Shown one piece after another: positions 4,015 through 4,482 of a stretch of 12,701 nt of DNA; the stretch's first letter is position 1, and each line of letters starts with the position of its first letter. The stretch is from UHGV virus genome UHGV-0102869, one strand, 5' to 3'. Position numbers and translations under genes: made by a program. The stretch comes from a virus. The notes below the pieces were generated by a model. It saw only the letters and a list, made by a program, of their open reading frames with translations, ran no database searches and was not told the origin of the DNA.

Positions 4015-4062
4015 TTTGCTGCTCCTCATCATATCGACCCTGCAAGGCCGATTAGTTTCTCC

Positions 4063-4151
4063 ACAAAACAGAGAAGAACACCTGCAGTGGCAGCCGCCCG
4101 GATGGATTGGGTTATGAGCCCGTCGTCCGGTGATGCTCTTCTCTGTTTTGT
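4063..4151. repeat. Inverted repeat: 14 bp perfect (ACAAAACAGAGAAG at 4063-4076 and its reverse complement at 4138-4151) around a 61-nt GC-rich loop
   Basis: Read directly from the sequence; arms extend to about 17 of 18 matches. Lies about 50 nt upstream of the YfdP-like start on the minus-strand transcript. Confidence 0.6.
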
Positions 4152-4424
4152 AAAAAGGACGGTACCAGCCGGAAGCAAGGGTACAAACTGGTACCGCCAG
4201 GACTACACACAGCATAAAGTTGTGGTGCCGGGTGCCTCCCGGTGCCTGGCGAAGGTTGCACACCAGACGGGTGGGTATCCACAGAAGGTCGACTGTCAGC
4301 CTCAACCTTAACCCGCGTGCGCTGAGCCGCATTCACCACAACGCTAAGGATTCTCTCTGGTTGAAAATACTTAGCTGTTATGTGCCTGCTTTTAGCCACA
4401 TCAGGCGAGGTGGACCTGGTTATT

Positions 4425-4480
4425 CCCCAACAACAAGGATTTGGTTATTATGTAACCCTCCCCAACAACGATAAGGATTT
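4425..4480 (+). repeat. Direct repeat CCCCAACAAC(0-3 nt)AAGGATTT, two copies (4425-4442 and 4460-4480), each ending in an AGGA ribosome-binding-like motif followed by an ATG
   Basis: Copy 1 is followed by an ATG-TAA mini-ORF (4450-4455); copy 2 is followed by the ATG of the 29-codon ORF at 4483. Confidence 0.6.
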
Positions 4481-4482
4481 AT

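Follow-up and report, generated by a model that had tools for sequence, protein, structure and literature searches.

What lies between the start of yfdP and the low-GC insert of a lambdoid prophage, at a place where a preliminary description had seen GC-rich DNA, no convincing gene and a perfect inverted repeat? We addressed this question for the virus genome UHGV-0102869, in a stretch of 12,701 nucleotides (nt), here called the window, which is a prophage of the SfV/SfIV/ST64B/e14 type. The region studied extends from the yfdP ATG at 4014 to the insert, which begins near 4480. We conclude, with a probability of about 0.72 for the explanation as a whole, that it is a non-coding RNA locus of the early-left arm with two adjacent modules on the minus strand: a small RNA (sRNA) of about 191 nt and, next to it, a long hairpin with a three-way junction that would serve as a processing site. 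The hairpin is the most interesting part of the locus.

The inverted repeat is real and non-random. It consists of ACAAAACAGAGAAG at 4063–4076 and its perfect reverse complement at 4138–4151, the exact 14-bp match described previously, and at the DNA level its arms reach 18 nt with 94% complementarity (4063–4080/4134–4151, with a 53-nt spacer). By our estimate, chance alone would supply about 0.005 inverted repeats of this kind (14 nt, exact, within 100 nt) per 12.7 kb. The step in base composition was also confirmed, with a GC content of 0.53–0.56 over 3900–4350 compared to 0.39–0.40 from 4350 on. When both strands were folded, as had been proposed, the minus strand folded better: its RNA forms a stem of 25 bp, including G·U pairs (4156–4132 with 4082–4058), with a free energy of −49.0 kcal/mol (z = −6.2; 0 of 200 shuffles were as stable), against −44.7 kcal/mol (z = −3.9) for the plus strand. 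The features of the two modules and of the adjoining yfdP start are as follows:

4152–4342, minus strand: predicted sRNA of about 191 nt, STnc100/PasD/sRNA-17 superfamily, from GUUGUGGUGAAU to CCUUUUU (Rfam match, ends placed by homology).
4342–4334 with 4227–4219, minus strand: closing (acceptor-like) helix of 9 bp, GUUGUGGUG with CACCACAAC (minimum free energy (MFE) fold).
4223–4244, minus strand: 22-nt core CACCGGGAGGCACCCGGCACCA (exact family match).
4242–4228, minus strand: T-arm-like hairpin CCGGG-AGGCA-CCCGG, within the 22-nt core.
4199–4218, minus strand: single-stranded linker UUUAUGCUGUGUGUAGUCCU, putative seed (unpaired in the MFE fold).
4198–4157 (stem) and 4156–4152 (U-tract), minus strand: intrinsic terminator, GGCGGUACCAG/CUGGUACCGUCC followed by UUUUU (fold).
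4058–4156, minus strand: long hairpin with three-way junction, outer stem 4156–4132 with 4082–4058 and the inverted repeat at its core (fold and covariation).
4098–4130, minus strand: arm P2, containing GGGCUCAUAACCC at 4121–4109 (sequence and covariation).
4084–4097, minus strand: arm P3, GCGG-CUGCCA-CUGC, of a length that varies by lineage (fold and covariation).
4035–4050, minus strand: CGGCC-UUGCAG-GGUCG, a small hairpin lying between the long one and the yfdP ribosome-binding site (read from the sequence).
4027–4022 and 4014–4012, minus strand: yfdP ribosome-binding site GAGGAG and ATG.

Module 1 was identified by the covariance search that the preliminary description had suggested. The STnc100 model of Rfam (RF02076) matched positions 4372–4150 of the minus strand over its full length (model positions 1–206) with a score of 41.2 bits (E = 1.3e-7), which is below the gathering score of 47 bits. 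Copies in e14, mEp460, SfII and ST64B likewise scored below this cut-off, whereas most other clusters tested reached 54–147 bits. The MFE fold of the sRNA (z = −3.5) contains the elements of an STnc100 RNA, with a UGGUG/CACCA closing helix, the hairpin P5, the CCGGG-AGGCA-CCCGG hairpin (P6) and a 3′ terminator. Its ends were placed by homology to E. coli K1 sRNA-17, which is 193 nt long and whose ends were mapped by rapid amplification of cDNA ends (RACE); the additional 5′ hairpin of the Rfam model (4375–4343) may lie outside the sRNA. A structured non-coding RNA, one of the earlier proposals, is therefore present, but the main RNA is the predicted sRNA at 4342–4152 and not the inverted repeat.

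Several parts of this RNA are widely shared. The exact 22-nt core occurs in more than 120 viral contigs. Their sequences form 32 clusters, most of which BLAST aligns to the window through the core alone. Among 32 sequences, the two outer pairs of the closing helix covary (CG/UA and GC/AU), as does the second hairpin (P2 of the sRNA), and other lineages have versions of the helix such as GUUGUGAC/GUCACAAC and GUUGUGGUU/AACCACAAC; a brute-force search for closing helices was noisy, and only clear cases were used. Hairpin P5, which is 7–9 bp long and diverse in sequence, is found directly 5′ of the core in most members when each is folded singly, but was too variable for MAFFT and is therefore missing from the RNAalifold output. 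Part of the linker, GCUGUGUGUAGUC, is the putative partner-pairing stretch. The motif UGCUGUGUGUAGUCUU is retained in several lineages despite differing RNA bodies. The terminator has a GC-rich stem of 11–12 bp and a loop of 19 nt, and ST64B retains this hairpin through a different stem sequence, GUCGGCGUC...GACGCCGAC. At the sRNA, a simple scan for promoters and terminators gave no hits; it allows loops of at most 8 nt and so could not report a terminator with a 19-nt loop, and this result reflects a limit of the scan and is not evidence of absence. (A 10-nt complementarity between the linker at 4203–4212 and positions 4489–4498 was judged to be compatible with chance, and Rfam matches to MIR1094, mir-9412 and ftsZ-DE with E values of 0.4–1.7 were dismissed as such.)

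The described counterpart is sRNA-17 of E. coli K1 RS218, which was detected by Northern blotting and mapped to 193 nt by 5′/3′ RACE in an mEp460-like prophage (Sun et al. 2020, PMC7719688). When it was deleted, yfdP rose about 95-fold and yfdR rose too, and virulence-related phenotypes were altered (PMC7719688). The authors reported no Rfam homologue, and the downstream hairpin was not described there. Using the supplementary alignment of that paper and phage mEp460, we mapped sRNA-17 from GUUGUGGUGAAUGCGCAGGC to GGUACCGCUCUUUU, which makes it the mEp460 allele of the window RNA. The two share the GUUGUGGUGAAU start, the GGUACCGC-UCUUUU terminator and the position upstream of yfdP. Since the body is a different cassette, we treat the window RNA, from its sequence, as an allelic variant of sRNA-17 and not as the same sRNA.

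STnc100 itself is a multi-copy prophage sRNA family of unknown function. Its members are transcribed in lysogens of enterohemorrhagic E. coli, with one copy verified by Northern blotting, and one copy lies 75 nt downstream of stx2B, where it overlaps the Hfq-bound EcOnc27. PasD of enteropathogenic E. coli (EPEC) binds Hfq and has many partners in RIL-seq, and PasD1 lies upstream of short open reading frames (ORFs). A 2026 preprint argues for a common ancestor of PasD and STnc100. We considered whether the window RNA could be PasD itself, but neither the seed nor the terminator sequence of PasD is matched in the window, and the kinship is therefore at the family level only. Thus, expression and mapped ends come from sRNA-17, Hfq binding from PasD and EcOnc27, and transcription in the lysogen from STnc100. 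By analogy with these relatives, the window sRNA would be made in the lysogen and would act in trans, dependent on Hfq and with the linker as its seed; what fits an Hfq-binding sRNA in the window copy is its architecture, in which a U-tailed terminator follows a single-stranded linker. Judged from its sequence, it is a new variant of a known family, whose early-left branch is missed by the Rfam threshold.

Canonical STnc100 copies often adjoin tRNA genes in the contigs sampled. (Labels beginning with L are our own, and are given where coordinates or single copies are meant.) Such copies lie near phage tRNA genes in L022, L008, L015 and L027 and near an isrI match in L028; they occur in tandem, three in L022 (342–1038) and two each in L011, L024 and L028. 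ST64B (L006) contains an isrK match (RF01394) above the gathering score at 5231–5307, about 2.4 kb from its copy of the locus and on the opposite side of the immunity region.

Module 2, the long hairpin, lies 42 nt upstream of the yfdP ATG, compared to the distance of about 50 nt given before. The interior of the repeat had been taken for a 61-nt GC-rich loop; it is not unstructured, however, since two conserved hairpins, P2 and P3, make it a three-way junction. A distant-homology search with 4030–4215 found that this supposed loop, and not the arms, is best conserved in distant phages, P2 most of all. In an alignment of 36 sequences, 96.0% of the cells are paired, as opposed to 40–50% with the partners slid. 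Changes on both sides of a pair, which had been proposed as a check on the stem, were found in 11 of the 34 pairs (64 cells), and 0 of 500 shuffles reached the observed score. RNAalifold independently recovered the same three-way-junction structure. The U·G and G·U pairs are conserved (alignment pair 30/108 is U·G in 33 of the 36 sequences) and fit the minus-strand RNA only; the structure therefore belongs to that strand, the early-left one, as had been supposed. Pair 22/116 is unpaired in 20 of the 36 sequences and forms a single conserved internal mismatch. The basal stem of P2 covaries between CCGGA/UCCGG, CCGGG/CCCGG, CCUGAU/AUCAGG and ACGGAU/AUCCGU, while three of the four pairs of P3 show compensatory changes, and other lineages have insertions of 30–40 nt there. 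A small hairpin equivalent to that at 4035–4050, GGCGGUGGCAGCCGCC, occupies the same place in other lineages.

The sequences for the covariation analysis were gathered by the exact 22-mer GACGGGCUCAUAAYCCAAUCCA, which is present in more than 120 viral contigs from 20 clusters and in 23 species-representative genomes. Of these genomes, 22 are Enterobacterales from 14 genera: Escherichia, Shigella, Citrobacter, Enterobacter, Kosakonia, Leclercia, Phytobacter, Raoultella, Pseudescherichia, Pseudocitrobacter, Buttiauxella, Mixta, Pantoea and Erwinia. The remaining record (L245) is titled Chryseobacterium sp. 18061 and has a typical enterobacterial-type hairpin, and contamination or mislabelling is more likely than real presence. 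The same hairpin architecture was found in 21 of the 23 genome hits, from 13 genera, and in these 21 the terminator U-tract and the next 20 nt or so pair with a 3′ arm ending in GGAGA. The hairpin travels as a mosaic block with or without yfdP, which is missing in SfII and e14, and mEp460-type phages keep the terminator, hairpin and yfdP with a different sRNA body. In Pantoea (L131 at about 1460–1600, phage PA-1; L259), the modules stand in the opposite order to those of the window: the hairpin leads with its 3′ arm directly into GUUGUGGUGAAU or GUGCUGAAC, the 5′ terminus of an STnc100-like RNA. Beyond this case, too, the 3′ arm (GUGCUCUUCUGUGUUGUGUGGAGAA) resembles the conserved leader and start of the sRNAs (GUGCUCUCUUCGUUGUGGUGAAU).

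Arm P2 bears a precise resemblance to a tRNA: GGGCUCAUAACCC (4121–4109) is identical to the anticodon stem-loop of initiator tRNA-fMet, whose sequence we checked against the annotated E. coli tRNA-Met genes (100% identity). ST64B and Klebsiella phage Kp4866-6 carry CUCAUUA in place of CUCAUAA. The Klebsiella phages GZ7 and ST16-OXA48phi5.2 (L127 at 1512–1581; L132 at about 1512–1585) have an unannotated tRNA-like element of about 70 nt with the same initiator-like anticodon arm. It is located directly after tRNA-Arg in the tRNA array of the late region and has a GGCCUG/CAGGCC stem followed by A/G-CCA. Neither module of the window is detected as a tRNA: ARAGORN called no tRNA gene in the window and none in the elements of interest at 11 related loci, cmscan of 3600–5200 returned no tRNA match, and the Klebsiella counterpart was matched neither by ARAGORN nor, even at E 0.1, by the Rfam tRNA model.

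Two homologous loci, L211 and L205, do pass the Rfam tRNA model, with 43.9 and 29.5 bits (gathering score 29). Their elements (L211 1077–1203 and L205 4364–4488, minus strand) occupy the locus of the sRNA body and were not called by ARAGORN. They lie between GUUGUGG and CCACAAC, upstream of the same kind of terminator and hairpin, and have a canonical D-arm and T-arm and an insertion of the 60-nt class. The insertion holds a second CAU-type loop, GGUUCAUAACC in L211 and AGGAUCAUAACCU in L205. In L205 the T-arm is built on the same stem as the STnc100 core hairpin, CCGGG/CCCGG, here with a canonical loop (CCGGG-UUCGAGU-CCCGG). Further T-arm-like pieces (for example GUCCG-UUCGAUU-CGGAC and GCUGG-UUCGAUU-CCAGA) are found upstream of the sRNA bodies in L134, L157, L129 and L128, and their sequences suggest arrays of tRNA-derived fragments. 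It is conceivable, and we would hold it only tentatively, that the STnc100/PasD/sRNA-17 sRNAs are remodelled tRNAs and that the hairpin is a second tRNA-derived module, whose tip would serve some tRNA-fMet-reading or -cleaving factor as a decoy or ligand. The sRNA would then have kept an acceptor-like closing helix, a D-like arm and a long variable arm, while the loop of the T-arm became AGGCA, and the cassettes of this one locus would range from the tRNA-model-positive L211 and L205 to the window sRNA. The tip would be released by duplex processing in early-left operons and by tRNA processing in the arrays of Klebsiella phages. Neither idea, remodelled-tRNA sRNAs or a tRNA-derived hairpin, was found in the searchable literature, and neither Rfam nor that literature yielded a description of a three-way-junction hairpin with an initiator-anticodon mimic.

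How would the two modules work together? The sRNA, with its tRNA-shaped 5′ domain, would act through the linker, while its terminator would shield the downstream yfdPQRST genes from upstream transcription. Module 2 would form only in transcripts that read through this terminator. In such RNA, the terminator U-tract and the next 20 nt would pair with 4082–4058 to give the 25-bp, junction-capped duplex, which would be a processing site for a double-strand-specific, RNase III-type enzyme. A cut there would part the sRNA from the yfdP message, whose 5′ end it would set, and would free a tRNA-like tip of about 50–70 nt. Processing and a leader function, probably as an RNase III site, is the most likely role of the hairpin. 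This part of the model is borrowed from DicF. Faubladier and colleagues are said to have reported in 1990 that the ends of DicF arise from termination plus processing by RNase III and RNase E.

Some points weigh against the two-module explanation. The STnc100 score of 41.2 bits remains below the curated cut-off of 47. The scan revealed no convincing sigma-70 promoter upstream of 4342, where the best candidate, GAGAAT at 4355–4350, has a poor −35 element; the 5′ end may therefore be processed from a longer transcript. The increase of yfdP in the sRNA-17 deletion could be due to read-through from the resistance cassette and not to loss of the terminator. The conservation of the hairpin 22-mer is circular because the 22-mer was the search key, although the stems outside it are unaffected. 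Lastly, cleavage by RNase III is deduced purely from the long, near-perfect duplex.

Other roles for the hairpin were weighed against processing. In one, which is compatible with the processing model and extends it, the tip would be the functional product: a small tRNA-like RNA whose anticodon loop is of the initiator type, and which would be set free here by RNase III and in the Klebsiella phages by the enzymes of tRNA processing. It would be a decoy or ligand for a factor that binds the anticodon arm of tRNA-fMet, for example a VapC-type anticodon nuclease, MetRS or the 30S/IF3 site. The exact stem-loop match speaks for such a product, as do the retention of the 22-mer in 14 genera, the Klebsiella element of about 70 nt following tRNA-Arg, and an inner domain that in phages of Klebsiella, Pantoea, Salmonella and Citrobacter is better conserved than the outer stem. 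We consider it unlikely, however, since the tip lacks a D-arm and a T-loop consensus, was accepted by no tRNA detector, has an anticodon-like stem of just three G-C pairs and an irregular extension, and differs by the CUCAUUA loop in ST64B and Kp4866-6. Alternatively, the hairpin could remain uncleaved and control translation or stability of the yfdP mRNA in cis, for instance if a protein bound to the tRNA-like arm altered access to the ribosome-binding site 30 nt downstream; the thrS operator, which mimics tRNA and controls translation, would be the model. In most lineages the hairpin does lie 40–60 nt upstream of the start of a yfdP- or sb37-type gene, the Shine–Dalgarno (SD) sequence is preceded by a conserved GGAGAA and the second small hairpin, and GGAGA pairs with the terminator U-tract even where the intervening sequence differs (L151-type). 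Yet the hairpin also precedes unrelated genes in SfII, e14 and L111 and another STnc100-like RNA in Pantoea, and the yfdP SD (4027–4022) is unsequestered in the predicted fold, which makes a purely cis-acting leader quite unlikely.

Two further explanations, a terminator and a degraded gene, had been raised in the preliminary description. According to one, the repeat is a tL-type intrinsic terminator that gates early-left transcription, as its great stability, its U-rich 3′ arm and its location between the immunity region and the early-left genes might suggest. But the 25-bp stem is A/U-rich and is followed after 4058 by AACUAAUCGG, and because no U-run follows, the duplex is not an intrinsic terminator. 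The genuine, canonical U5 terminator (4198–4152) is immediately 5′ of the stem, with which it shares its U-tract. Furthermore, replacement of the 193-nt sRNA-17 alone in K1 switched on yfdP and yfdR, while the homologous hairpin was, to judge by the reported coordinates, retained; the hairpin alone is therefore no block to transcription, with the caveat of cassette read-through. We regard a terminator role as improbable.

The second, and in our judgment highly improbable, explanation is that the region is a degraded YmfH-family gene, or that a longer YfdP has its true N-terminus here. The ORFs named in the preliminary description do exist, and annotation offers some encouragement: a copy with 89% identical DNA in e14 of K-12 is annotated on the same strand as the 103-residue protein YmfH, the Prokaryotic Genome Annotation Pipeline (PGAP) marks the copy in the nearest genome as a frameshifted pseudogene, ‘hypothetical protein’, and SfIV is annotated with an extended YfdP ORF of 226 residues. 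Against this, e14 is the one lineage of those compared in which the ymfH-type ORF is open, and there it owes its existence to two 1-nt deletions, of which one falls within the conserved core hairpin. The frame is broken in the window, SfIV, SfII, ST64B and mEp460, and 1-nt indels break it in all four non-e14 lineages compared. Substitutions in the ymfH frame are spread over codon positions 1/2/3 as 10/12/12, 22/24/26 and 27/30/32, with no third-position excess, and no NCBIfam model matches any ORF of the region. The ORF would also have to cross the intrinsic terminator and the 25-bp hairpin, and the conservation is explained by covariation at the RNA level. Coding by the ymfH-type ORF is thus unlikely, in agreement with the earlier impression that no real protein gene is present, and the degraded gene that had been offered as a possibility lacks any coding signature. 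In e14, ymfH (L002 3987–4298) overlies a decayed copy of both RNA modules; the loop there has changed from CUCAUAA to UUAAUAA, a loss that fits decay in a defective prophage.

The following genes flank the locus in the window:

50–1213, minus strand: integrase.
1440–4014, minus strand: yfdT, yfdS, yfdR, yfdQ and yfdP.
5485–6159, minus strand: LexA-family cI-like repressor.

On the cI side of the locus, a near-consensus leftward promoter (TTGACA-16-CATAAT, 11 of 12 matches) is found at 5445–5418 on the minus strand, just below the cI terminator (5473–5454). It is overlapped by a TGTAC-N7-GTACA site (5422–5438) that matches two palindromic operators between cI and cro (6177–6193 and 6227–6243). 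From these motifs, the promoter and operator at 5418–5445 are probably the leftward promoter and operator (PL/OL) of the prophage, and upstream transcription could start at this strong PL-like promoter. Its transcript would run antisense through ORFs at 4580–5074 and 5208–5477 before reaching the sRNA. A 17-nt motif (CAACAACGATAAGGATT-like) is present in three direct copies at 4336–4352, 4425–4441 and 4463–4479; read on the minus strand, the motif gives the sRNA leader AAUCCUUAGCGUUGUGG, with two more copies upstream. Copies stand at mosaic boundaries, where homology to e14/SfII ends at 4413 and to SfIV at 4477, and the repeats may have been left behind by cassette exchange or by former tandem copies. 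They were also considered as cI operators, but do not match the true motif, TGTAC-N7-GTACA (6177, 6227, 5422).

The locus is common. Matching DNA is present in 2780 of 5426 complete E. coli genomes, 1823 of which hold at least 80% of the 381-nt query, and the records examined label it ‘hypothetical protein’, a frameshifted pseudogene or, in K-12, YmfH. On the present evidence the region is RNA, and results obtained with ‘ymfH’ clones may therefore be RNA effects. A screen listed an e14 ymfH clone among the prophage triggers of RcaT, the toxin of retron-Sen2 (bioRxiv 10.1101/2020.06.22.160242). Such a clone would be transcribed in the sense of both RNAs; a relation to the trigger is only possible, but if the ORF is spurious, that effect may be one of RNA. 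The analysis also joins STnc100 of Rfam, the EPEC Pas sRNAs and the sRNA-17 described from meningitis E. coli in one superfamily, in which bodies and seeds are exchanged on a fixed 5′ and 3′ frame and of which the current Rfam threshold misses the early-left branch. The locus touches on lysogen physiology as well, since loss of the neighbouring sRNA in K1 de-repressed yfdP and yfdR and changed virulence-related phenotypes (PMC7719688). The hairpin, a compact and strongly covarying motif with an initiator-tRNA anticodon loop in 14 Enterobacterales genera, is a new object that can be tested.

The two modules can be compared with several known systems. One is sRNA-17, which also lies directly upstream of yfdP in an mEp460/SfV-type prophage and has nearly the same length (193 nt, against 191 nt in the window). 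Its first 15 nt, GUUGUGGUGAAUGCG, and the CACCACAAC closing strand are identical in the window RNA, and the terminator, with nearly the same last 55 nt or so, and the downstream hairpin are near-identical to those of the window. By contrast, the central 110 nt or so and the linker with the seed differ, the overall identity is 58%, and the mEp460 type lacks the exact 22-nt STnc100 core and carries CCGG-AGAUCAGCA-CCGG. STnc100, EcOnc27 and PasD share with the window RNA the closing helix, the D-arm-like hairpin, P5, the CCGGG-AGGCA-CCCGG hairpin with the identical 22-nt core, the linker, the terminator and a lambdoid prophage as host. However, the second hairpin of the window RNA is GCGGC...GCACGC instead of CCCCC...GGGGG, and the described STnc100 and PasD copies are in the late region, whereas the window copy belongs to the early-left arm, with the cI-side insert on one side and yfdP on the other.

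Like the window sRNA, DicF, from the dicBF operon of the Qin prophage, is an sRNA inside an immunity-proximal early operon, and the window linker and terminator (UGGCGGUACCAGUUU...) weakly resemble it. The score of the DicF model (RF00039) over 4157–4211 is 15.7 bits (E of about 1) and that of L205 is 29.6 bits, both below the gathering score of 48, and DicF has neither the tRNA-shaped 5′ domain nor the downstream three-way-junction hairpin. The phage RNase III sites (lambda N-leader, sib, T7 R sites) resemble module 2 in having a duplex of at least 20 bp in an early transcript just upstream of a gene, and many of the hairpin homologues have one conserved internal mismatch. They differ in that the duplex of module 2 is capped by a three-way junction and not by a simple loop, and cleavage here is a prediction from the sequence. 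With tRNA, finally, module 1 shares helices like the acceptor, D-, variable and T-arms, and module 2 the exact initiator anticodon stem-loop; what sets them apart is the replacement of the T-loop by AGGCA, the lack of a CCA end and, in module 2, an “acceptor” of 25 bp.

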